The position numbers and the translations under genes were made by a program. DNA of 64,000 bases, taken from IMG/VR virus record IMGVR_UViG_2563366840_000001. One strand, written 5' to 3'. Positions 30,842 to 64,000 of the stretch are shown here, piece by piece; within the stretch, counting starts at the first letter, position 1, and every line of letters starts with the position of its first letter. This DNA is from a virus. Taxonomy: Duplodnaviria; Heunggongvirae; Uroviricota; Caudoviricetes. The notes beneath the pieces were generated by a model. The model worked only from the letters and a program-made list of their open reading frames with translations, was not told the origin of the DNA and did no database searches.

Positions 30842-32211
30842 TAATAATCCTCTTGCCAGTCAGCACCGGCATAGTTATCAAACCGTGAGTATTGGCCGTT
30901 AAAAGCCAATCTCACCGTGCCAATTGGGCCATTTCGTTGCTTACCGATAATTACCTCGGCAATGCCCTTCATTTCGCTATCCGGGTGATAAACTTCGTCG
31001 CGATACAGAAACATGATCAGGTCTGCGTCCTGTTCAATTGCTCCTGATTCGCGTAAATCTGAATTTACCGGTCGTTTGTCCGCGCGCTGTTCAAGCGAGC
31101 GATTAAGTTGTGACAATGCCACCACCGGTACTTGTAATTCCTTCGCCAACGCCTTCAGTGAGCGAGAAATCTCGGCAATTTCCAGCGTTCGGTTATCTTG
31201 CAGCTCGGGGACGCGCATAAGTTGCAGGTAGTCGATCATAATCATGCTCAAACCACCATTTTCTTTATAAACACGACGAGCGCGGGAACGTAGCTCTGTC
31301 GGCGTCAGGGCGCTTGAGTCATCAATAAAAATATTCTGCTTGTCCAACAGAATACCCATTGCGCCAGAAACCCGCGCCCAATCATCGTCGTTAAGTTGCC
31401 CCGTTCTAATACGAGTCTGATCAACGCGTGCAAGAGAAGCCAGTGAGCGCATCATCAGCTGGTGACTCGGCATCTCAAGGCTAAAAACCAATACGGGCTT
31501 ATCGTTACGAACTGCGGCATTTTCGACGAGATTCATCGCAAACGTGGTCTTCCCCATAGATGGGCGGGCGGCGACAATGATGAGATCGGACGGCTGAAGC
31601 CCCGCCGTCTTCTTATTGAGATCGGTAAATCCCGTATCAAGCCCCGTTACACCATCATGCGGTCGCTGAAACAACTCTTCTATGCGAGATACCGTTGCAT
31701 CGAGAATGCTGGCGATATCTTTTGGACCACTACCGCTATTTTGTCGTTTTTCAGCTATTTCAAAAACGCGGCGCTCGGCCATATCCAGCAATTCATTGCT
31801 GCCCCTGCCATCCTGCGCATATCCAGCTTCGGCTATTTCATTTGCGACGGAAATCATTTCACGAACAACCGCGCGTTCACGAACGATATCCGCATAAGCA
31901 CAAATATTTGCCGCGCTGGGCGTGTTCTTTGACATCTCCGCAAGGTACGCAAAACCACCGGCGCGTTCTAATTTACCGTTCTGTTCAAGTGCTTCAGCAA
32001 GTGTTATCAAATCAATCGGTTTGCCATGACTTAATAACCTCTCCATCTCACTGAAAATTTCACGATGAGCACTGGTATAAAAATCATCAGCAACTATACG
32101 ATCTGCAACTTCATCCCAGCGGCAGTTATCAAGCATTAAGCCACCAAGTACAGCTTGTTCTGCACTAAGGGAATTTGGCATGGATTCAAGAGGGGATGCA
32201 GACATTAGCAC
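30841..32211 (-). CDS. ban: Ban, DnaB-analog replicative helicase (456 aa)
   Basis: DnaB-family sequence (ARPSMGKTTFA Walker A) with N-terminus shorter than and diverged from E. coli DnaB, as expected for P1 Ban. Confidence 0.85.
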   Translation of the reverse strand: MLMSASPLESMPNSLSAEQAVLGGLMLDNCRWDEVADRIVADDFYTSAHREIFSEMERLLSHGKPIDLITLAEALEQNGKLERAGGFAYLAEMSKNTPSAANICAYADIVRERAVVREMISVANEIAEAGYAQDGRGSNELLDMAERRVFEIAEKRQNSGSGPKDIASILDATVSRIEELFQRPHDGVTGLDTGFTDLNKKTAGLQPSDLIIVAARPSMGKTTFAMNLVENAAVRNDKPVLVFSLEMPSHQLMMRSLASLARVDQTRIRTGQLNDDDWARVSGAMGILLDKQNIFIDDSSALTPTELRSRARRVYKENGGLSMIMIDYLQLMRVPELQDNRTLEIAEISRSLKALAKELQVPVVALSQLNRSLEQRADKRPVNSDLRESGAIEQDADLIMFLYRDEVYHPDSEMKGIAEVIIGKQRNGPIGTVRLAFNGQYSRFDNYAGADWQEDY

Positions 32212-32321
32212 TCCACCCAGGCGTGCTGAATGTCAGATATATGATTAGACTTGAGATAAATGACAGGGGATAAGTGAGATAATTATGGGAAGTACTGGGT
32301 CAACATGGGAAGAGACTGGAT

Positions 32322-32402: not shown

Positions 32403-32822
32403 TTACTCCTTTTTCCCTGTATCGGCATCAGGTTCGCCATCAAACAGTTTGCCCTGCATCCGATCCAGTTCTTCTTTTCTGACCCGCTTCACCACGCTGT
32501 AAACCCACTGTAGTGAAACACCAAATTTGCGGGCCAGTTCGTGATGGTTGCGCCCGTCAAACTCCAGGAAAATTTCCCGGTCGCGCTGGCTGACCTTCCA
32601 GACCATGCCCATCGGAAAATAGACGTTTTGCCCACCCCAGACCTGCATCATGCGGTTCGCGACGGCCTGACCAATCTGGTCGGCAACTGCGGGTTCGATA
32701 TCAATAATCTCGCGGACAGTCTCAGAGGTATGCTGTGCCAGTTCCACCAACAGTTCCGGCCCTTTACTACGAAACTGATTCAGGTCGCTCATTGCTTCAC
32801 TCCCGCAGCTCTGCGCTGCCAC
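32403..32822 (-). CDS. Mor-like middle-operon transcription activator (likely start at Met 32792)
   Basis: Mor/C family pattern at C-terminus; position after GemA-like gene. Confidence 0.6.
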   Translation of the reverse strand: MAAQSCGSEAMSDLNQFRSKGPELLVELAQHTSETVREIIDIEPAVADQIGQAVANRMMQVWGGQNVYFPMGMVWKVSQRDREIFLEFDGRNHHELARKFGVSLQWVYSVVKRVRKEELDRMQGKLFDGEPDADTGKKE

Positions 32823-33217
32823 TTCTTCAGTTTCTCAATCACGCTACTTGCCTGCTCATTGCTGAGCCAGCGTAACGCGCTGATGCCGGTTTCCCGTTTA
32901 ACCCACAGCGCCAGCGCCTGCTCTGAACTGTCACGGACGATGCCTGCGGCAGCCATTTCAAGCCATAGCGCACGGATTTTCTTTGACTGCGGATGGCTGT
33001 CGAGCGGTAAGCCGGACTTGGCTTTCCCGGCAGGCTTAATGCGAAAGCCTTTCTTTTTCATTGATTCCAGCACGCGGTTTAGCTGTGGGGTATCCATCCC
33101 TTTGGTTGAGGCTTTGCCGGTCAGCCCCTGTAGCATCTGGCGGTAGGTGTCCTCATCCATCTGGAGGTCGCTGCGGGCAATATGAATGAGTTGAATAAGA
33201 CGCTGCTTAGTCATCAT
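32789..33217 (-). CDS. GemA-like protein (Mu gp16 family)
   Basis: MTKQRLIQLIHIARSDLQMDEDTYRQMLQ...; start taken at internal Met of ORF 32789..33406. Confidence 0.55.
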   Translation of the reverse strand: MMTKQRLIQLIHIARSDLQMDEDTYRQMLQGLTGKASTKGMDTPQLNRVLESMKKKGFRIKPAGKAKSGLPLDSHPQSKKIRALWLEMAAAGIVRDSSEQALALWVKRETGISALRWLSNEQASSVIEKLKKWQRRAAGVKQ

Positions 33218-33422
33218 TGCCACTCCTTTTACCTGCGCCACCGATATAGTCGACATATAAAGGAAGCGCGACAGGCCAGCACAGGAACATAACGGCCCAA
33301 CTGATCCAGTGTCCGGTACCGCTGTAACGTGAGTAAAACCCTGAACGGCGGTGCAGTTCAGCAGTACACCACCCCACGAGACCATACCAGAACAAGGCAC
33401 ATACAATTGATTCAGCCATCAT
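33207..33422 (-). CDS. Small membrane protein (71 aa)
   Basis: Two hydrophobic segments. Confidence 0.35.
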   Translation of the reverse strand: MMAESIVCALFWYGLVGWCTAELHRRSGFYSRYSGTGHWISWAVMFLCWPVALPLYVDYIGGAGKRSGNDD

Positions 33423-34108
33423 AAGCCACTCCCCAGCTTCCGCTGTTCCTGCCCGCTGACAGGCTGATGTAGACGGACGTTTTCTCCCTCTCTGTAACCG
33501 ATGTGGCGGGACATGTCCGCGTCACGGGATTTACCGGCTTTGCGGCCAGAGGTTGTTCCTGAATCAGGGTATTTTTGTTCAAGCCAGAGGTTTGCCAGCT
33601 CCCGTTCTTCGCGGGACATAGCAAATAAATGAACCTCACTACGCACGGCCAGAACCCATCCTTCGGCAAATTTGTCACCACGGCTGGTCTTGGTCGTGTT
33701 TTTGATTCTTTTATTCTGCTGTCGAATATAGTTTTTACGGGCCATGATTAACTGTCTGGCCAGTACCTCCCATGTATATGAGGCCAGTTCAACCCGGTCT
33801 TTATTACCGTAAAAGCCAACGCCGGGTTTAAAGCCGGAGTGAATAATAGACTTAACGCCAAATGCCACCTGGATAATATCCAGCAGACCCAGCATATAAC
33901 GCGGCGGATTAACGCTACCTGCAGCCCAGTAGTTACTGACGCTTTCATCAATATCACTGAGTGCGAGGTCAGCCTGGGTGATGTTATAGGCCTGCATCAG
34001 TTTCTGGGCGCGTTGCAGTGCCAGTGCCGCTTCATGGGGGTTATCGGATTTAGCCAGCGCAAGTAGCTTTTTTAACTTCTCCAGCAGCTTTTCATTATTC
34101 TGCGGCAT
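33419..34108 (-). CDS. Conserved early protein, DUF2786-like N-terminus (229 aa)
   Basis: EKLLEKLKKLLALAKSDNPHEAALALQRAQKLM motif; from memory. Confidence 0.5.
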   Translation of the reverse strand: MPQNNEKLLEKLKKLLALAKSDNPHEAALALQRAQKLMQAYNITQADLALSDIDESVSNYWAAGSVNPPRYMLGLLDIIQVAFGVKSIIHSGFKPGVGFYGNKDRVELASYTWEVLARQLIMARKNYIRQQNKRIKNTTKTSRGDKFAEGWVLAVRSEVHLFAMSREERELANLWLEQKYPDSGTTSGRKAGKSRDADMSRHIGYREGENVRLHQPVSGQEQRKLGSGL

Positions 34109-34391
34109 AAGTCACCCCCAGGCGTTCGGCAAGGCGTTCCAGCTTTTTCTGCTTATGAAAATCAATCATCAGGCCCATCCCGTTTAGGCGGAACTGTTCA
34201 ATCATGATTTCAACGTCAGCCAGTTCGCCTGCCAGATCAACTTCATTGCCCAGTCCGTTCATGTTGCGGGCAGCAGCAGCGGCCAGTTCGGCAGCTTCTT
34301 CCATCAGCTTCAGAGCCTGAGCTTCTGGGCCGAAGGTTTTGAGGGCCAGATTGTAGATCGTCGAACGGTTATATAATTTCATGCCTTTCAT
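34095..34391 (-). CDS. Hypothetical early protein (98 aa)
   Basis: ORF track. Confidence 0.45.
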   Translation of the reverse strand: MKGMKLYNRSTIYNLALKTFGPEAQALKLMEEAAELAAAAARNMNGLGNEVDLAGELADVEIMIEQFRLNGMGLMIDFHKQKKLERLAERLGVTYAAE

Positions 34392-34406
34392 CTTATCTTC
34401 CCCAAA

Positions 34407-34679
34407 TCAATGGCGTGATACGCTGATAACTTTCACGTGGCCGTCCTCAGTAATTTCCAGCTCGTACAGCGGCGGCATTTTTCTCAGGTGGTCACTGGTG
34501 GCGTGAAGAACGTAAATGGCCTGATCTAGGCCATTTGTTGCTACGATGGCGTGTGAAGCCATGCTGATTAATTTGATTAATACCTGCCGGATATGGTTGG
34601 GATTTTCACAACCACATTCACTGATATATTCCGCGACAATTTCACGGGTCCGTTTTTCGGCTTCTTTTGCAGTAATCAT
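34407..34679 (-). CDS. Hypothetical early protein (90 aa)
   Basis: ORF track. Confidence 0.45.
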   Translation of the reverse strand: MITAKEAEKRTREIVAEYISECGCENPNHIRQVLIKLISMASHAIVATNGLDQAIYVLHATSDHLRKMPPLYELEITEDGHVKVISVSRH

Positions 34680-34864
34680 TTCTTTGCCTCACAAGGGATG
34701 AATTCCATGGCCGGGACTTCGGTGTAGTAATGCTGGCTACAGTGTGGGCATACCAGCGTGATGAGGACGGCTGGTACGCGGTACTTACCGGAGGAAATGA
34801 CGCTGGCGTCGCTGAACTTCAGGGTGGTGATACCTTTCTGGCAGTTGATACATTTGATGGACAT
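34676..34864 (-). CDS. Small zinc-ribbon protein (62 aa)
   Basis: CINC ... CPHC pattern. Confidence 0.45.
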   Translation of the reverse strand: MSIKCINCQKGITTLKFSDASVISSGKYRVPAVLITLVCPHCSQHYYTEVPAMEFIPCEAKK

Positions 34865-34942
34865 GATTTATTCCTTAATGCTGTTTTCGGCGTGTAGAAG
34901 CCCACGGCACTGACGCCGAAATAAAAAGAAATTGAATTAAAA

Positions 34943-35554
34943 TTAAATGGCAGCGATATCTAACGGAATATTAATTAGCTTCCCGTGTTTATCTTTCTCC
35001 CGGAAATTAATATAGGTTTTGGACATTGCCACCTGCAGTGATTCCGATATGGCCTCCATTGCCCGGTTCCAGCGCTCGTCCTGAATCTTGACGCGGCGCA
35101 GGGAAAGAATACGTCCGGTATTAAGCTGGCCCTCTTTGTCCACCTGAAAAGCATCGCTGATGATGGCCCGCAGGTTGGCGTTCGCGCCTTCCGACCACTC
35201 GGTGACGCACTCGTCTATCAGGTCTTTGGCAATCTGCAGCTCTGGCCCGAAGGTCAGGGTTTCCTGCACGCGGATGGTGATCTGCTGAGCACCGTCGAAG
35301 CTGCTGAAGGTCACGTTGCCTTTGGCACCGCCACGCGTTCTGCCGTACTTCTCGGCCACAAGGTCAAGCCAGGCATAGCACTCGTCAAAGGCACGACGCT
35401 TGAAGTCACTGAGTTCATCGCGTTTAACCTTCGCGGCGACAACCTGTTCTTTAACGAAAGAGTCCATCGCAAGGTCATAGTCAGACACCTGGTCAACCGG
35501 CACCAGACGCCCCTTGCGGTCTTTCATGTAGTTTTCTTTATTTACTTCGCTCAT
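34943..35554 (-). CDS. Conserved Mu-like early protein (203 aa)
   Basis: ORF track; position downstream of B-like gene. Confidence 0.5.
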   Translation of the reverse strand: MSEVNKENYMKDRKGRLVPVDQVSDYDLAMDSFVKEQVVAAKVKRDELSDFKRRAFDECYAWLDLVAEKYGRTRGGAKGNVTFSSFDGAQQITIRVQETLTFGPELQIAKDLIDECVTEWSEGANANLRAIISDAFQVDKEGQLNTGRILSLRRVKIQDERWNRAMEAISESLQVAMSKTYINFREKDKHGKLINIPLDIAAI

Positions 35555-35571
35555 CTCTGTTCACCTTATGG

Positions 35572-35841
35572 TTAATGTAACGACTCTGACCAGGTAATAC
35601 GGCAGCCATGCAACTCAAAGACACCCTGACGGAAGCGCCCTGAGCCGTCATGGCCAACATGGGTATAACTCGCTTTGCCCTGCTCCAGCAGGCGGGCACA
35701 GTGCCCGTTGCGGGCGATACGGATAACCGGCTTACTGCCAGCAATCATGACGCTCTGCACGGTAGTGTTCATGGCGTTGAGCGCCATAATGGCGGACTGC
35801 ACCTTGTTCATCTGCTGGTTGATATCGGCGATGGATTTCAT
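35572..35841 (-). CDS. Hypothetical early protein (89 aa)
   Basis: ORF track. Confidence 0.4.
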   Translation of the reverse strand: MKSIADINQQMNKVQSAIMALNAMNTTVQSVMIAGSKPVIRIARNGHCARLLEQGKASYTHVGHDGSGRFRQGVFELHGCRITWSESLH

Positions 35842-35843
35842 GC

Positions 35844-37010
35844 TTAAACTCCTTTGACGACGTCGGCGTTGACCTGCGGGACCCCGATTTCAGCAGCCAG
35901 ATTCATGGCGGCTATCACCAGGTTACTGACGGCCAGCGGATACAGCAGGCTGACCATGCTTTTACGGCTACTACCCAGATTGCTCAGACGGGCGCGGATG
36001 GCTTCCACTGCGCTGGCGTCCATGATGTCGGCCAGCTGCTTACCGGCACGTTGCAGTTTGAACGTCAGAAACTCTTCGAGGCTGTTGTCCAGCGGCAGCA
36101 ATTCAACCAACTCGCAGCGCTGGACGACCTCACGGACTTCCATGTTGCGTTCGGACAGTTTGTCCGCCAGTTCAGGCTGGCCAATCAGCACGATGGACAG
36201 CAGTTTTTTGAAGCCGGACTCCAGTTCGAAGAAGCGTTTAAGGTGCTTCAGCGTCGGAATGGGAAGGCTGTGGGCCTCCTCAATCACCAGAACGTGGCTG
36301 AAACCCGCCTGACTGCTGTCCTTCAGGACTCGGTGCAACTGGCGGAAGCGGGCGTCCTGGCTGCGTTTGATACTCTCCAGCGGCGCGATGGTGCTGATGA
36401 TGGCCTCGGCGATAGCTGCCGCCTTCAGGGTTTTGCCCTTCACGTCGTTGTCTTCCATGGCGATGATGTATGGCTCGATTACAATCACCGGCGCGTTCTC
36501 GCGGTTGACGCGTTCAATCAGGTCGCGGCGCAGCGTGGATTTACCCGCACCGGACTCGCCGATAACCGCCAGAAAGCCACCATGGCGGGCGGTCTGGAAC
36601 AGCGCCTCACGCACGTAGCGGATATCCGGCGTGGTGAACACATCGTCCGCGCCCTGCATGGCTTCATCGGCGAACGGATCACGGAAAAGGCCAAACGCTT
36701 TTTTGGTTGCTGGAAATAACACCTGCTTTTTGAGTAACATGTTCTCTTCCTCACTGAGGTTGGTTTTATCGGTAGTACCCGCTGTACGGGGCGTGACAGC
36801 GCCCTGTGCAGCATCAAAACTTTTCACTGTATCAATCCCCTTACTTTCCAGATACAACGCCAGACGCTGGCGTACCTCTTCGGGGCTGGTGCGTGGCCAC
36901 TCGTTATGGTTCACAATCTGGGCCAGCGTGGCCTCGGAAACGGCGACGGCTCTTGCCACCACCGCCTGCGGGATGCGGGCCTCTTTCAGTTGTTGCTTCA
37001 GTACCAGCAT
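35844..37010 (-). CDS. Transposition ATPase, MuB-like AAA+ protein (388 aa)
   Basis: Walker A GESGAGKST; directly downstream of the transposase. Confidence 0.8.
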   Translation of the reverse strand: MLVLKQQLKEARIPQAVVARAVAVSEATLAQIVNHNEWPRTSPEEVRQRLALYLESKGIDTVKSFDAAQGAVTPRTAGTTDKTNLSEEENMLLKKQVLFPATKKAFGLFRDPFADEAMQGADDVFTTPDIRYVREALFQTARHGGFLAVIGESGAGKSTLRRDLIERVNRENAPVIVIEPYIIAMEDNDVKGKTLKAAAIAEAIISTIAPLESIKRSQDARFRQLHRVLKDSSQAGFSHVLVIEEAHSLPIPTLKHLKRFFELESGFKKLLSIVLIGQPELADKLSERNMEVREVVQRCELVELLPLDNSLEEFLTFKLQRAGKQLADIMDASAVEAIRARLSNLGSSRKSMVSLLYPLAVSNLVIAAMNLAAEIGVPQVNADVVKGV

Positions 37011-37020
37011 GCCTTCCTCC

Positions 37021-38790
37021 TCAGTTACCGTTAACGATGCTGATAACGCTGTTGCGGGCCGGAGTGGTCAGGGTAACCATCACCTCATCCAGCGCGGCTT
37101 CAGGTACGCCATCCGGGTACTGCGCCGTTAACTGGCGGTAATGTTCCGGCGTCCAGATATGGCCGTTAGCGCCAAACTTCTCGCGCAGGGCTTTCGCCGC
37201 CTCCACATGGGTCAGCGGACGCTGCTCAATACGCGGCCCGCGCACGTCTGAAGCCTGACCGCGCTTCGGCATATAGGCCGGAAGCGTGGTGTCGTCGATA
37301 TGTTTGTACGGGTCAAGTCGCCCGCCGAACGGCAGCGCCTTCGCCTTGCGTGCAGCAGCTGCATCGGTGGCGTTATCGGTGCCCGTAACCAGCTCTTCGA
37401 TTTCTTTTGCCGCCGTCTGCGCCGGGGTCTCCGGCAGGGCTTTGTAGTTTTCGCCAAATACCGCCGCGTTTTCGGCAAAGCCGAACTCGTTCTTTCTGAC
37501 CTCCTCGACCAGGAAGAACGTCTCGTGACCGTCCTCACCGGTCAGCACCACCTGCGCCACATCGCTGCGCCACGGGTTACGGGTAATCATCAGTTTTTCG
37601 CCGACCAGTACGCCCGGTACCGTCGAAACGTCAAACTCATTGCCCCGGAACGAGACGCGCAGTTTTGGTGTGACCTTACGGAGTTCCGGTGCGGCCACCG
37701 CCAGTTCGCGGCAAACCTCAACGGATGGCGCTTTTTTCAGCTGGTCAGCAGTAATCTTCAGCCAGATATCCGTGCGGGTTTTACCGTGGCGGCTGTGGAC
37801 CGCCGTGGCGTTAAAGTGGCTGCGCCATTTCACCGCCAGTGCGTTCAGTTCGTCCAGGCTATGAACCGGCTGGAATTTGAGACCCGGCTCCAGTTTACGT
37901 TCGATAATGTCACGGGCCTTTTCCACCTGCCCGGTGGCGCGGGCGTTATGCGGCTTGTGCGCTATCAGATTGATGCCCAGCGAGCGGCACATGTTTTTCG
38001 TCATGCCAGCGGTGTTCGCCGAACCGGGATCAAGGTAGAGTATTTTCGGCACGCCGTGCAGCACGTCCGCGCCGCCGCGCTCCTGCATGGCGTTGATAAG
38101 CACAGAACAGAGGTTCTCACCAGATTCCGCACCCATCACGTACTCAACGTAAATCCAGCCGCTGGTATGGTCGGTAATCTCGTAACTCCACACGCGGTCA
38201 CTGGCGATGCGGGCGATGTTGGCAGGCTTGTTCTTGTAGAACTTCGAGCTGTCCATCACCTGCAACCCTTTATGGCCGTTGCTCAGGTAGTAAAGCGTAC
38301 AAAGTGAGGCATCAATCTCCCAGACGTGATTGGGATGCAGGCTGGCCATCTCGGACGACGGGGCCGGTGCGTCAAGCTGTTCCGGGTGCAGACCATAGTT
38401 CCGCAGGGCGCGGCTGATGGTGTCCTCGGACAGCGGGAAAAACTCGCCTGTGGCCTCGTCCGTTCTGCCAGCAGTGATAAAGCCGTTTGACCGCAGGGTC
38501 TCCACCGCATCCGCGATGGAATACAGGCGCTTACCGTTCTTACGGGTGGCCTCGCGCAGCGTGGCAGATATCAGCGCGGCTTCGTCGCGGCTCAGGGCAC
38601 TGCGCCCGGCATCGGCGCGTTTTTTACGTTTGTCAGTCACTGATACCTCCTTCAGCTTGCGCAGCAGGGTGGCGCGGGAAATGCCCAGTTCGGCGCAGGC
38701 GGCATCATATATCGCACCACGCTTACCATGCCCCGCGTCACGTGCCGCGCGGGCAACATAAACCAGTCGTTCAGTCAGGGCGGCACTCAT
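37021..38790 (-). CDS. DDE transposase, rve/integrase-core type (589 aa)
   Basis: WEIDAS ... LYLDPGS ... GQVEKA candidate D,D,E triad spacing; N-terminal HTH. Confidence 0.8.
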   Translation of the reverse strand: MSAALTERLVYVARAARDAGHGKRGAIYDAACAELGISRATLLRKLKEVSVTDKRKKRADAGRSALSRDEAALISATLREATRKNGKRLYSIADAVETLRSNGFITAGRTDEATGEFFPLSEDTISRALRNYGLHPEQLDAPAPSSEMASLHPNHVWEIDASLCTLYYLSNGHKGLQVMDSSKFYKNKPANIARIASDRVWSYEITDHTSGWIYVEYVMGAESGENLCSVLINAMQERGGADVLHGVPKILYLDPGSANTAGMTKNMCRSLGINLIAHKPHNARATGQVEKARDIIERKLEPGLKFQPVHSLDELNALAVKWRSHFNATAVHSRHGKTRTDIWLKITADQLKKAPSVEVCRELAVAAPELRKVTPKLRVSFRGNEFDVSTVPGVLVGEKLMITRNPWRSDVAQVVLTGEDGHETFFLVEEVRKNEFGFAENAAVFGENYKALPETPAQTAAKEIEELVTGTDNATDAAAARKAKALPFGGRLDPYKHIDDTTLPAYMPKRGQASDVRGPRIEQRPLTHVEAAKALREKFGANGHIWTPEHYRQLTAQYPDGVPEAALDEVMVTLTTPARNSVISIVNGN

Positions 38791-38793
38791 GGG

Positions 38794-39702
38794 TTATGCC
38801 TCCTGCCCGTTAATCTCTGGCGTCGGGTCAGTCAGCCATGAAGGGGCGGCGTTGCCTGTCGGCTCGTCCGGCAGGTCAAATGTGGAGCGTAGGCTACGCG
38901 CGGTGCTTTCCAACTGGCAGACCAGACCGGCCATAAAGTCTCTGGGGGTATCAATCATATTTTCAGCACAGTATGCGCACAGGGTCTCAAAGGCGCTGGA
39001 CAGTCGAACGGCGATGGCAGATTCCGCCTCAACCGCTAACGCTGTAACTTCCGCACGCAGCTTCTTCACCTCTTCGTCAGGCTTGGGCGGCTGGATACGG
39101 GATTTCTTCTCCAGTTTTGTGGAGAGCGAGTCGATTTTTTCGTTTTTGTCGGCAAGCACGCGCTGTTGTGCTGCGTTGGTTTCGCGGGCTTCACGTAGGG
39201 CTTGACGCAATTCTCTACAGCTCATGCGGTCGACATCATCTAGTTTCAGACCCGCTACAGTGCCACCATCAGCCAGTTCAGCGAGAGATTCATCATCTTC
39301 AGTCATCAATTCAAAAAGTTTGGATTTACCCAAATGTGCCAACGTTGGCACATTTGATTTCAGTGCGGGGGATAAGTATTTAGTCGATGCTTGCATCATC
39401 CGCACAGAAGTTCGGTATGGTAAGCCCAACTCATTTTCAAGAATGTTAATAAATTCCCCGTGCGGCTCATTTTCTTTAAGAATTACAAGGCGCTTACCTG
39501 CTTCCAGCATCGCCTCAGCACTCTGTGCCATATAAAACCGTGTTTCGTGAACAATACGATCACGTTCATACGGCAGACCATCACCGAACTGCTGCATGAT
39601 TTCGAGGCGATGTTCGGTCATGGCATTAAGACTAACGTTGAGGCCATCACTCAGCGGAGCATCTTCCATTAGTTCAACTGGTTGTGATTTTGTGCGTCCC
39701 AT
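38794..39702 (-). CDS. Conserved early protein, DUF3102-like (302 aa)
   Basis: ORF track; family call from memory. Confidence 0.45.
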   Translation of the reverse strand: MGRTKSQPVELMEDAPLSDGLNVSLNAMTEHRLEIMQQFGDGLPYERDRIVHETRFYMAQSAEAMLEAGKRLVILKENEPHGEFINILENELGLPYRTSVRMMQASTKYLSPALKSNVPTLAHLGKSKLFELMTEDDESLAELADGGTVAGLKLDDVDRMSCRELRQALREARETNAAQQRVLADKNEKIDSLSTKLEKKSRIQPPKPDEEVKKLRAEVTALAVEAESAIAVRLSSAFETLCAYCAENMIDTPRDFMAGLVCQLESTARSLRSTFDLPDEPTGNAAPSWLTDPTPEINGQEA

Positions 39703-39711
39703 TTCAACTCC

Positions 39712-40017
39712 TTAGCGACTACCAGCCATAACACGCTGGTTGATTTCATTAATACGATCCTGCGCCCGCGCCATTTCGGTACTGTGCGCCATGGCGATTT
39801 GTAAGAGCTGGACTCCAGGGGCAAAACGCCCGTTATCCAGTTTCAGGGCCAGTCCTTCTTCGATAAGGGTATTGAGCGCCCGATTGATATTCGCCGGGGA
39901 CTCGCCCAGAGCTGACGCCAGCTCGCCGTTAGAAACACCGTTCAGAGCGTGACCGCGTAAAGCCTTAAGGACACGCAAAATACGGGTACCTGAGCTTGAT
40001 GTATTTGGTTTACTCAT
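39712..40017 (-). CDS. Winged-helix DNA-binding protein (101 aa)
   Basis: HTH-like segment LNGVSNGELASALGESPANINRALNTLIEEG. Confidence 0.45.
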   Translation of the reverse strand: MSKPNTSSSGTRILRVLKALRGHALNGVSNGELASALGESPANINRALNTLIEEGLALKLDNGRFAPGVQLLQIAMAHSTEMARAQDRINEINQRVMAGSR

Positions 40018-40244
40018 GACGCCTCCTTGAGGATGCCGGGGGTAACTTCTTTGCCTATTGCGACCGAAAGGTCTCGCAAAATCCGATAAGTCAAACGACC
40101 GCGTGGAAGTTCGCTTTTGCCTGCCCAGCGGCTGACAGCCTGGGTGACTGTTCGTGGCTCATAGCCCGCGTTAAGCGCGAACTGGCGCAAGCTACTGCCT
40201 CTTTCAACCAGCCGTGCCCGAACTTGTTGTTTGTTCATATGCAC
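40014..40244 (-). CDS. Ner-like DNA-binding regulator (76 aa; GTG or nearby ATG start)
   Basis: SLRQFALNAGYEPRTVTQAV resembles the Ner/Nlp HTH; divergent from repressor. Confidence 0.6.
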   Translation of the reverse strand: MHMNKQQVRARLVERGSSLRQFALNAGYEPRTVTQAVSRWAGKSELPRGRLTYRILRDLSVAIGKEVTPGILKEAS

Positions 40245-40326
40245 CGTGTTCCTGTTGGGTTATGATGTACTCTATTGGGTCTATTGTACGCACCCGAACG
40301 GGTATGTCAAATTGAGATATGTTCAA

Positions 40327-40737
40327 ATGAGTATAAAAGAGAGATTGCGCGAAGCGATGGATGCTAAGAGTCTGACAATTAAGGCATTGTCAGACTTGTC
40401 AAAAATTCCATATCGCTCACTTCAAAACTATCTGCGTGGAGAGAGAGAACCTAATGCAGAGGCTCTTGTTGCGCTAAGCACCCATTTGAACATATCAATA
40501 GATTGGCTACTTACTGGTAAAGGGGAAGCTGTTGGGGTAGAGAAAGCACAGCCAGCTAATCAGGAGCAGCATTTCAACCAGTCTGATCTGAAGTTATTGG
40601 AGCTGCTCAACCAACTGGAGCCAGAGGTGCGAAAAGAGTTGCTGCGAGGCGCTGAGGAAAAACAGCGAATGATTGATATGGAAAAACAGCTTAAGGAGCT
40701 GTCCGCAGCGTTCGAAAGATTAAAAAATACGGGTTAA
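40327..40737 (+). CDS. Prophage repressor, XRE-family HTH (136 aa from Met 40327)
   Basis: SLTIKALSDLSKIPYRSLQNYLRGEREP HTH; divergent from ner-like gene with 82-bp spacer. Confidence 0.65.
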   Translation: MSIKERLREAMDAKSLTIKALSDLSKIPYRSLQNYLRGEREPNAEALVALSTHLNISIDWLLTGKGEAVGVEKAQPANQEQHFNQSDLKLLELLNQLEPEVRKELLRGAEEKQRMIDMEKQLKELSAAFERLKNTG

Positions 40738-40772
40738 TCTGTTCCTATTAAGAACATTAGAGGTATAAGGAC

Positions 40773-41306
40773 ATGACTATGCGCAAATTATTTTTACCGT
40801 TGATATTTGTTTTATCTGGGTGTGGAGATAATACCGATCCTGCTGATACGTCCACCACAGCTAAGGAGCACGCGGTTTTTAGCGTTGAAACAGATAATCC
40901 GGTTGTAAATCGCGAATTACCGTTTATTCGCCAACAACTCCCCGGCCTGGATAAGTACGCGGACAGTTTTGAAAAAGTCGAAGTATCCGAGGATAGCGAA
41001 CGTCCGGTGACAACGGTGCAGTTTCATATTAAAGACGAAAATAATATTCCAAGTGACTACATAGCCTCTGGTCATAATTGTTATTTGTTCATATCAAATA
41101 ATGCCCACGAAGTGAAAATATCTAAATCAGCATGTCAGGCTGTTTTTTTCGATAAAACGGATGTTCCTGGTGGAGACCTGACCGTGAAACTTGATAAGGA
41201 AAAAGTTCCTATGACAGATGATGGTAAGACCCCGCGAGCAGGTTGTTTGAAAGCTTATTCACCAGAGCCAGATAATGATTATTGGACTTGTCCAAGGCAG
41301 GATTAA
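40773..41306 (+). CDS. Lipoprotein (177 aa)
   Basis: Signal peptide with lipobox LSGC; AT-rich; co-oriented with repressor. Confidence 0.65.
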   Translation: MTMRKLFLPLIFVLSGCGDNTDPADTSTTAKEHAVFSVETDNPVVNRELPFIRQQLPGLDKYADSFEKVEVSEDSERPVTTVQFHIKDENNIPSDYIASGHNCYLFISNNAHEVKISKSACQAVFFDKTDVPGGDLTVKLDKEKVPMTDDGKTPRAGCLKAYSPEPDNDYWTCPRQD

Positions 41307-63498: not shown

Positions 63499-64000
63499 AT
63501 GGCAAACCTACCTGAAACACCGCAGTGGGAAGAAGGCATCTACCAGATTGAGGTCTCTGACCCCGTTCTGGGTGGGCCTGACGGAATCTCTAACCGTCAG
63601 GGTAAACAACTGGCCAGCCGCACGCTGTACCTGAAGCAACAGGTTGAAAAAGGCGGTTCTGAACTTGCGAAACACATCGCGGCAGCAGACCCGCATACCC
63701 AGTACGCACCGAAAGCCAGCCCGACATTCACCGGCACGCCAACAGCGCCTACGCCTGCAAATAGTGATAACAGCAAGAAGCTGGCGACGACAGAGTTTGT
63801 GGCCAAAGCACTTGCGGCGCTTGCTGGCAGCGCTCCTGAGACGCTGGATACGCTCAAAGAGCTGGCTGATGCCCTCGGCAACGATCCGAATTTTGCGACC
63901 ACGGTGTTGAACAAGCTGGCGGAAAAGCTGGCCAAAGACCAGCACGGCGCAGATATTCCTGACCCGGCGCTCTTTGTCAAAAACCTTGGTTTGGGAGAAG
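63499..64000 (+). CDS. Tail fibre protein, N-terminal part; continues beyond window end
   Basis: ATG at 63499 gives MANLPETPQWEEGIYQIEVSDPVLGG...; open to the window edge, so absent from ORF track. Confidence 0.6.
   Translation, partial: MANLPETPQWEEGIYQIEVSDPVLGGPDGISNRQGKQLASRTLYLKQQVEKGGSELAKHIAAADPHTQYAPKASPTFTGTPTAPTPANSDNSKKLATTEFVAKALAALAGSAPETLDTLKELADALGNDPNFATTVLNKLAEKLAKDQHGADIPDPALFVKNLGLGE

Follow-up and report, generated by a model that had tools for sequence, protein, structure and literature searches.

Positions 35844 to 40737 of IMG/VR virus record IMGVR_UViG_2563366840_000001, a 64,000-nucleotide stretch of DNA that was analysed as a whole and is called the window here, very probably belong to an intact transposable myovirus prophage of the BcepMu type, of which they hold the lysogeny switch and part of the early (transposition and regulation) module. 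This prophage, approximately 34.3 kb in length, has its first base at window position 32242 and continues past the right window edge. According to the open reading frame (ORF) map and homology, the minus strand carries the early operon (32403-40238) and the plus strand carries the late genes from approximately 42372. Between these blocks lie a Cro/CI-type repressor gene and a lipoprotein gene, both on the plus strand, and a Dam gene on the minus strand. The ORF map of the 33-44 kb segment shows a tight minus-strand string of genes encoding 388, 589, 302, 101 and 76 amino acid residues, which faces a plus-strand helix-turn-helix (HTH) gene. The lysogeny switch is located at the interface of two divergent gene clusters: the minus strand carries the early genes, and the plus strand the repressor with the late genes (40327-64000). 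Because Dam is encoded on the minus strand, the transcripts of the repressor and of the late genes do not include it.

A preliminary description of this DNA had proposed the same divergent layout, with the repressor, lipoprotein and Dam in between, and a place in the BcepMu-like branch of transposable phages rather than with Mu itself. Every ORF that it named was found in the ORF map where it had been placed, the layout is borne out, and both transposase homology and gene synteny favor BcepMu. Besides the placement of Dam outside both plus-strand transcripts, two details need revision. While the early genes are located as described, the operon actually reaches farther left, to the Mor gene at 32403, with the phage end at 32242. 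The repressor most probably begins at the ATG at 40327 (136 residues, as annotated in the RefSeq copies) and not at the TTG at 40231.

Sequence relationships of the transposition proteins

Domain scans were carried out with Pfam, NCBIfam and PHROGs; MuA was scanned in the same way for comparison, with a Pfam detection limit of E≤0.01 for MuA-type domains. The transposition genes and the catalytic codons of the transposase are as follows.

37021-38790, minus strand: TnpA, 589-residue rve-type DD(35)E transposase (Pfam, PHROGs, BLASTP, alignment, structural model)
38311-38313, minus strand: TnpA catalytic codon D160
38029-38031, minus strand: TnpA catalytic codon D254
37921-37923, minus strand: TnpA catalytic codon E290
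35844-37010, minus strand: B-like transposition ATPase, 388 residues, ExeA/Eha-family AAA+ with an N-terminal HTH (AAA_22, E 3e-20)

Apart from a weak Fis-type HTH, the sole Pfam match of TnpA is rve (PF00665; E 2.3e-7, 31.4 bits, slightly under the cut-off of 32.6). The same rve-only pattern is seen in BcepMu gp09 (31.1 bits), precomputed Pfam tables assign PF00665 to the TnpA family, and in PHROGs TnpA falls into phrog_310 ‘transposase’ (E 6e-145). In the same Pfam scan MuA contains DDE_2, HTH_Tnp_Mu_1, HTH_Tnp_Mu_2 and Mu-transpos_C, none of which was detected in TnpA; nor did Pfam detect PF09299, a Mu-transpos_C-type beta-barrel. BLASTP found no similarity between TnpA and MuA (best E 3.1), and hhalign matched a 68-sequence TnpA family profile to MuA over just a 21-column HTH stretch with 0.8% probability. 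TnpA aligns with BcepMu gp09 end to end (68% identity over 581 residues, TnpA residues 1-577; BLASTP) and is 57% identical to B3 ORF12. Residues D160, D254 and E290 are unchanged in the alignment of 68 homologues with identity down to 31%. Their spacing is D-93-D-35-E, compared with D-66-D-55-E in MuA (D269/D336/E392). The proposal that the transposase has a retroviral-integrase-like D,D,E arrangement rather than the MuA signature thus holds: rve is matched and the MuA families are not, the triad is invariant, and there is no end-to-end alignment with MuA.

The best NCBIfam model for TnpA is that of IS481 transposases (NF033577; 67.6 bits, E 1e-18, cut-off 224), and the nearest non-phage relatives found in plasmids by tblastn are IS481-family transposases with approximately 25% identity over residues 30-400. 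Judged by these matches, TnpA is a distant IS481 relative and not a member of that family, a kinship that agrees with the label ‘Tn552-IS1604 family’ used in an earlier report (PMC2771037). Sequence and profile searches of PDB initiated with TnpA returned weak hits to retroviral integrase cores alone (E 0.003-0.1), aligned around D254/E290, and neither MuA nor TnsB was among these matches.

The gene for the 388-residue ATPase is directly downstream of the transposase gene. Its product has a Walker A motif (GESGAGKS, at residue 151) and a Walker B motif (VLVIEE), belongs to phrog_296 ‘DNA transposition protein’ (E 5e-89) and is 60% identical to BcepMu gp08; its RefSeq name is ‘ExeA family protein’. 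Pfam detected Phage-MuB_C in MuB and not in the ATPase, similarity to MuB in BLASTP is limited to the P-loop, and a PDB sequence search gave generic P-loop matches alone.

Predicted structure of the transposase

A first AlphaFold model of TnpA, built from 26 close homologues (68-100% identity), had a predicted local distance difference test (pLDDT) score of 58, with less than 50 in the catalytic core, and was discarded. Addition of two distant clades to the alignment resulted in an AlphaFold2 model with pLDDT 82. In this model, the N-terminus folds into two helical/HTH domains (residues 1-50 and 68-135) and an RNase-H-like core (approximately 150-345) carries the D,D(35)E triad. The core is followed by a six-strand beta domain (369-430), linker helices and a C-terminal helical domain (approximately 528-575). 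Structure comparison of the model gave the following values.

IstA: 20.8
MMTV (mouse mammary tumor virus) integrase: 20.6
Tn7 TnsB: 20.5; ShCAST TnsB: 20.5
Many retroviral integrases: 15-20
MuA: 12.8 (4fcy) and 11.4 (1bcm)

The top Foldseek match was ShCAST TnsB (E 3e-17), MuA was outside the top 50, and TnsB, among the best structural matches, shared 264-319 aligned residues with the model. As far as the model goes, the nearest folds of TnpA are TnsB and IstA. Within one DDE superfamily, MuA merely represents a more distant branch, which qualifies the contrast drawn previously between rve and MuA; the contrast is correct in that the model is structurally nearer to TnsB, IstA and retroviral integrases than to MuA. 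Sequence identity of TnpA to the solved structures of these structural relatives, TnsB (from Tn7 and the type V-K CRISPR-associated transposon), IstA (from IS21) and retroviral integrases, is 13-18%. TnpA differs from TnsB, IstA, the integrases and IS481 by a ~30-residue insertion between D1 and D2 and by the extra C-terminal helical domain. It is also phage-encoded, whereas TnsB, IstA and the IS481 relatives are encoded by transposons or insertion sequences.

Gene order in comparison with BcepMu, B3 and Mu

By tblastn (E≤1e-3), 36 of the 50 BcepMu proteins match the window, strictly collinear and in the BcepMu orientation, from gp01 (Mor/C; 32421-32774) to gp52 (tail fiber; 63499-63927). The corresponding count for Mu is 9 of 50, namely GemA, Mor, C, TerL, portal, F, G and, weakly, gp47 and S; Mu c, Ner, A and B had no match in the window. 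With BcepMu (NC_005882), phiE255 and the enterobacterial relatives PhiKM, KP12 and Phi06_2974 B the prophage shares the rve-type TnpA, the ExeA/Eha-like ATPase, DUF3102, IclR-like, gp16-like HTH, DUF3164, GemA and Mor genes opposite the late strand, a Cro/CI-type repressor at the interface, a lysis cassette followed by a Mu-like head and a P2-like tail, and, judged by the AW1.7 copy (see below), TG..CA ends. Unlike in BcepMu, a lipoprotein and Dam fill the variable slot after the repressor, and complete copies of the prophage carry a Gin-like invertase and opposite-strand tail-fiber assembly genes. BcepMu gp03, 04, 06, 07, 11, 13-16, 18-20 and the gp53 acyltransferase had no tblastn match in the window at the same threshold.

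The genus demarcation used by ICTV is approximately 70% genome-wide nucleotide similarity. A megablast search with the region found no match to BcepMu and identified Escherichia phage Phi06_2974 B (97.3% DNA identity), Klebsiella phage KP12 (clone KP12_2; 95.7%) and Escherichia phage PhiKM (88.9%) alone. Without DNA identity to BcepMu at the megablast level, the prophage is a different genus or species by nucleotide criteria: at that level it falls outside Bcepmuvirus, with protein identities to BcepMu of 26-79%. GenBank places PhiKM in Bcepmuvirus.

The early module also resembles that of Pseudomonas phage B3 (Beetrevirus) in the order Mor, GemA, DUF3164, B, A, DUF3102, regulator and small HTH, and past this module in the divergent repressor, lipoprotein and lysis genes; B3, however, is a siphovirus with other tail genes and more distant sequence. 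Mu is likewise a temperate transposable myovirus with homologues of Mor/C, GemA, TerL, portal, F and G, a DDE transposase of the RNase-H fold with an AAA+ partner, and TG..CA ends like those of the AW1.7 copy. It differs in the transposase domains (DDE_2, Mu-specific HTH domains and Mu-transpos_C in MuA, rve in TnpA), in D-55-E rather than D-35-E, in having early and late genes on one strand rather than on opposite strands, in a 5-bp target duplication compared with 6 bp here (AW1.7 copy, see below), and in its tail genes, which in the window are P2-like rather than Mu-like.

Prophage ends and insertion sites

32242-32300, no strand assigned: left prophage end, 5'-TGATTAGAC (copies identical to this base, unrelated past it)

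The window and four other contigs with an identical transposase are identical as far as ...TCTAATCA and unrelated past it; these five copies share the ...TAATCA end and then diverge into different host genes. Since identity stops at a common base and the match to P1-like sequence (see below) stops at 32241, the phage end is exactly 32242, with 5'-TG on the plus strand. The same phage occurs at five other sites elsewhere, giving six different insertion sites in all. In one of them, Escherichia coli AW1.7, a prophage of 34,303 bp splits adiA, has TG...CA ends and lies between two copies of GTAGCT, a 6-bp duplication. The 31,759 phage bases of the window are 99.978% identical to the AW1.7 copy, and the right end of the window copy is therefore expected approximately 2.5 kb past 64000. 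It is expected to read ...GCGCATCA; ...GCGCGGCGCATCA at ~66,544, followed by a GATATA duplication and then by P1-like plasmid sequence ATCGGCATACTC.

The left end contains repeats, GAGATAAATG at nucleotides 12-21 and GTGAGATAA at nucleotides 33-41 from the tip, that are putative transposase-binding sites. In the AW1.7 copy, each end has GATAAATG at approximately nucleotides 14-21 and GTGAGATAA at approximately nucleotides 33-41 from the tip, and it is plausible that these repeats, too, bind the transposase.

The phage is widespread. In the assembly collection, more than 1,200 indexed blocks contain exactly the transposase sequence of the window copy, which is also annotated in Salmonella enterica and has close relatives across Enterobacterales. 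A related region is present in 640 of 5,426 complete E. coli genomes, with at least 99% identity in 7. In OZ040872.1 (L005, 16547-21770), the identical phage adjoins P2-like tail-fiber and baseplate genes, a second landing inside another prophage. PLSDB record NZ_CP132021.1, listed as an E. coli ‘plasmid’ of 40.5 kb, has a transposase gene whose product is 99.7% identical; because the size of the record is close to that of the phage genome, it may be a circularized or misassembled phage copy and not a true plasmid.

Probable insertion into a P1/P7-like phage-plasmid

The left flank of the prophage (12000-32241) is 98% identical to P7, SJ46, P1 and P1-like plasmids of 90-107 kb, and this match ends at 32241. 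By this similarity, the whole left half of the window (1-32241) is a P1/P7-like phage-plasmid. The junction (32241/32242) places the prophage 30-36 bp upstream of the dnaB homologue ban (minus strand, 30841-32211). Plasmid pd1-7_A, which is uninterrupted, has the insertion site between ban and tRNA-Ile, and the empty site reads ...CAGATATA|ATCGGC. The P1/prophage junction is covered neither by any PLSDB plasmid nor by any of the complete E. coli genomes in RefSeq, and the insertion site upstream of ban is the sole feature that was not found elsewhere in the collections searched. We consider it likely, albeit with less assurance than the identity of the prophage itself, that the window copy arose when a BcepMu-type phage genuinely transposed into the ban operon of a P1/P7-like phage-plasmid, that is, one temperate phage inside another.

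Alternative interpretations

Several points weigh against the identification of an intact transposable prophage. The rve score of TnpA (31.4 bits) is marginally under the gathering cut-off of 32.6. The window copy has its right end and target duplication outside the window, approximately 2.5 kb past 64000; the TG left end is exact in the window, and the CA right end and 6-bp duplication were seen in the AW1.7 copy only. We infer transposition activity from intact ORFs and from the many insertion sites of near-identical copies, and a replicative rather than conservative mode is assumed from the Mu/BcepMu paradigm.

With its right end outside the window, the copy might be read as a decayed, immobile prophage remnant with non-working transposition genes. 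Such a remnant is improbable. All ORFs from Mor to the tail fiber are intact, the 31,759 bp of phage sequence hardly differ from a 34.3-kb copy that is complete, having both ends and a target duplication, identical transposases occupy many chromosomal sites, and the close relatives Phi06_2974 B, KP12 and PhiKM have been deposited as phage records.

With IS481-family proteins as its nearest non-phage sequence relatives and TnsB and IstA as its nearest folds, TnpA might be thought to come, along with its ATPase, from an IS481-, Tn552- or Tn7-like transposon that landed in an unrelated prophage. We regard this as very improbable and reject a transposon nested in the prophage because no internal element boundaries are present: no boundary of a mobile element was found other than the end of the phage at 32242. 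Moreover, the A and B genes are inside an operon collinear with those of BcepMu and B3, and the IS481 score is far under its cut-off. A classic Mu-type phage with merely diverged MuA and MuB is scarcely credible and is refuted by the domain results (no MuA Pfam domains, no Phage-MuB_C), negative BLASTP and hhalign alignments with MuA, DDE spacing (93/35 versus 66/55), early genes opposite the late strand, the duplication of 6 versus 5 bp, and synteny (36 BcepMu versus 9 Mu protein matches).

Other early genes

The remaining genes assigned to the early operon are as follows.

32403-32792, minus strand: Mor/C-family late-transcription activator, last early gene (BcepMu gp01 53%, Mu Mor 30%; Pfam Mor in identical copies; RefSeq annotation)
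32789-33217, minus strand: GemA, gp16-family (BcepMu gp02 47%, Mu GemA 36%; Pfam GemA)
33419-34108, minus strand: DUF2786/DUF7168 early protein (ORF; Pfam families in identical copies)
34943-35554, minus strand: DUF3164 early protein, homologue of BcepMu gp05 and B3 ORF6 (Pfam E 7e-80; gp05 44%)
35572-35841, minus strand: 89-residue early protein, phrog_2041 (ORF and PHROGs)
38794-39702, minus strand: DUF3102 protein, 302 residues (Pfam DUF3102; phrog_1748, E 6e-136; BcepMu gp10 42%)
39712-40017, minus strand: IclR-like winged-helix regulator, 101 residues, homologue of BcepMu gp12 (HTH_IclR, E 1e-6; phrog_1368, E 2e-44; gp12 35%)
40014-40238/40244, minus strand: first early gene, small BcepMu gp16-type HTH, 76 residues from 40244 (phrog_8503, E 5e-35; start 40238 as in RefSeq)

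The DUF3102 gene is kept directly upstream of the TnpA-type transposase gene in BcepMu (gp10), B3 (ORF13) and all enterobacterial copies. The first early gene scores 28.9 bits with the NCBIfam model BcepMu_gp16, below the cut-off of 34, and occupies the position that Ner has in Mu.

Switch region, accessory slot and late genes

40327-40737, plus strand: Cro/CI-type HTH repressor, 136 residues (HTH_3, E 6e-11; Phage_CI_repr, E 8e-6; BcepMu gp17 N-terminus 37%; RefSeq start)
40283-40310, minus strand: candidate early promoter TTGACA-16 nt-TACAAT (11 of 12 consensus matches; within the 88 bp that separate the first early gene from the repressor gene)
40773-41306, plus strand: lipoprotein with signal peptide and lipobox VLSGC, low G+C of 0.42 (no BcepMu counterpart)
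41354-42124/42148, minus strand: Dam-family N6-adenine DNA methyltransferase, D12 class (MethyltransfD12, E 1.2e-27; TIGR00571, 117 bits, above cut-off)
42372-64000, off the window edge, plus strand: late region (collinear with BcepMu gp21-gp52, 26-79% identity; 99.978% identity with the AW1.7 prophage over its first 31,759 bp)

The ATG at 40327 is the most likely start of the repressor, which does not have a peptidase S24 domain. The candidate promoter is the best sigma-70-like site within 39.9-42.5 kb and may reasonably be taken as the early promoter; against this reading, sigma-70-like matches in the region are no more numerous than in shuffled sequence. Repeats in the 40150-40400 segment are short, and convincing operator repeats were not found there.

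The slot between the repressor and holin genes is variable, with the lipoprotein and Dam here and gp18-20 in BcepMu. The lipoprotein gene is accessory and moron-like, and the tblastn search with the 50 BcepMu proteins found no counterpart of Dam. The G+C content is 0.445 in the repressor gene and 0.416 in the lipoprotein gene, compared with 0.54 in the early and 0.58 in the late region. The low G+C of 40327-41306 suggests that the immunity and accessory slot has been exchanged horizontally.

The late genes are arranged in the order holin, SLT endolysin, Rz-like, TerS, TerL, portal, MuF, MuG, protease and capsid, followed by P2-like sheath, tube, tape measure, baseplate and the start of the tail fiber. 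At the end of complete copies (AW1.7; L008, 32646-35613, corresponding to ~63.5-66.5 kb and thus for the most part outside the window), a tail-fiber gene is accompanied by opposite-strand tail-fiber assembly genes and a gene for a 193-residue ‘recombinase family protein’. In its gene content, this AW1.7 segment looks like a Gin/Cin-type invertible host-range segment; BcepMu is described as having no tail-fiber inversion system (PMC2771037).

Proposed mechanism

By analogy with Mu, BcepMu, Tn7 and IS21, the following sequence of events can be proposed. While the phage is lysogenic, a leftward early promoter within the 88-bp gap between the divergent genes would be silenced by the plus-strand Cro/CI-type repressor (40327-40737). 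Derepression would yield one minus-strand transcript encoding the gp16/Ner-like HTH protein, the IclR-like regulator, DUF3102, TnpA, its AAA+ partner, the small proteins, GemA and Mor. The N-terminal HTH domains of TnpA would bind the paired repeats approximately 12-21 and 33-43 nucleotides from each terminus, and its DD(35)E center (D160, D254, E290) would nick at the terminal CA-3' and join the ends to the target with a 6-bp stagger, while the ExeA-family AAA+ partner, as an analogue of MuB, would select and present the target. Repeated replicative transposition would amplify the genome, and Mor would switch on the plus-strand late genes for lysis, the Mu-like head and the P2-like tail.

Significance

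The element is of an already known kind and is effectively an already sequenced phage. The finding is ordinary because its features have all been published for BcepMu-like phages and near-identical prophages are present in RefSeq and GenBank. In the published descriptions, BcepMu has an rve/Tn552-IS1604-type transposase, bottom-strand genes 1-13 and top-strand genes 17-52 with the lysogeny switch between them, and BcepMu and phiE255 share a transposase unrelated to MuA, divergent clusters, lysogeny genes at the interface, a P2-like tail and TG..CA ends (PMC2771037, PMC2628397, PMC2920897).

The main value is in correct annotation: the region should be labeled a BcepMu-type, not a Mu-type, transposable prophage. 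The automated names ‘integrase’ and ‘ExeA family protein’ obscure the role of the two transposition proteins. Landmarks are now at hand for this phage, which is common in enterobacteria, namely its catalytic triad, left end and end repeats, the duplication of 6 bp and a confident TnsB/IstA/integrase-like model. The site of insertion, a P1-like phage-plasmid, is of modest interest as a curiosity that bears on how mobile elements interact. If the insertion is genuine, a P1 genome of ~95-100 kb that has gained ~34 kb should no longer fit the P1 headful; P1 would then be trapped as a plasmid, and the transposable phage would gain a low-copy, partition-stabilized launch pad.

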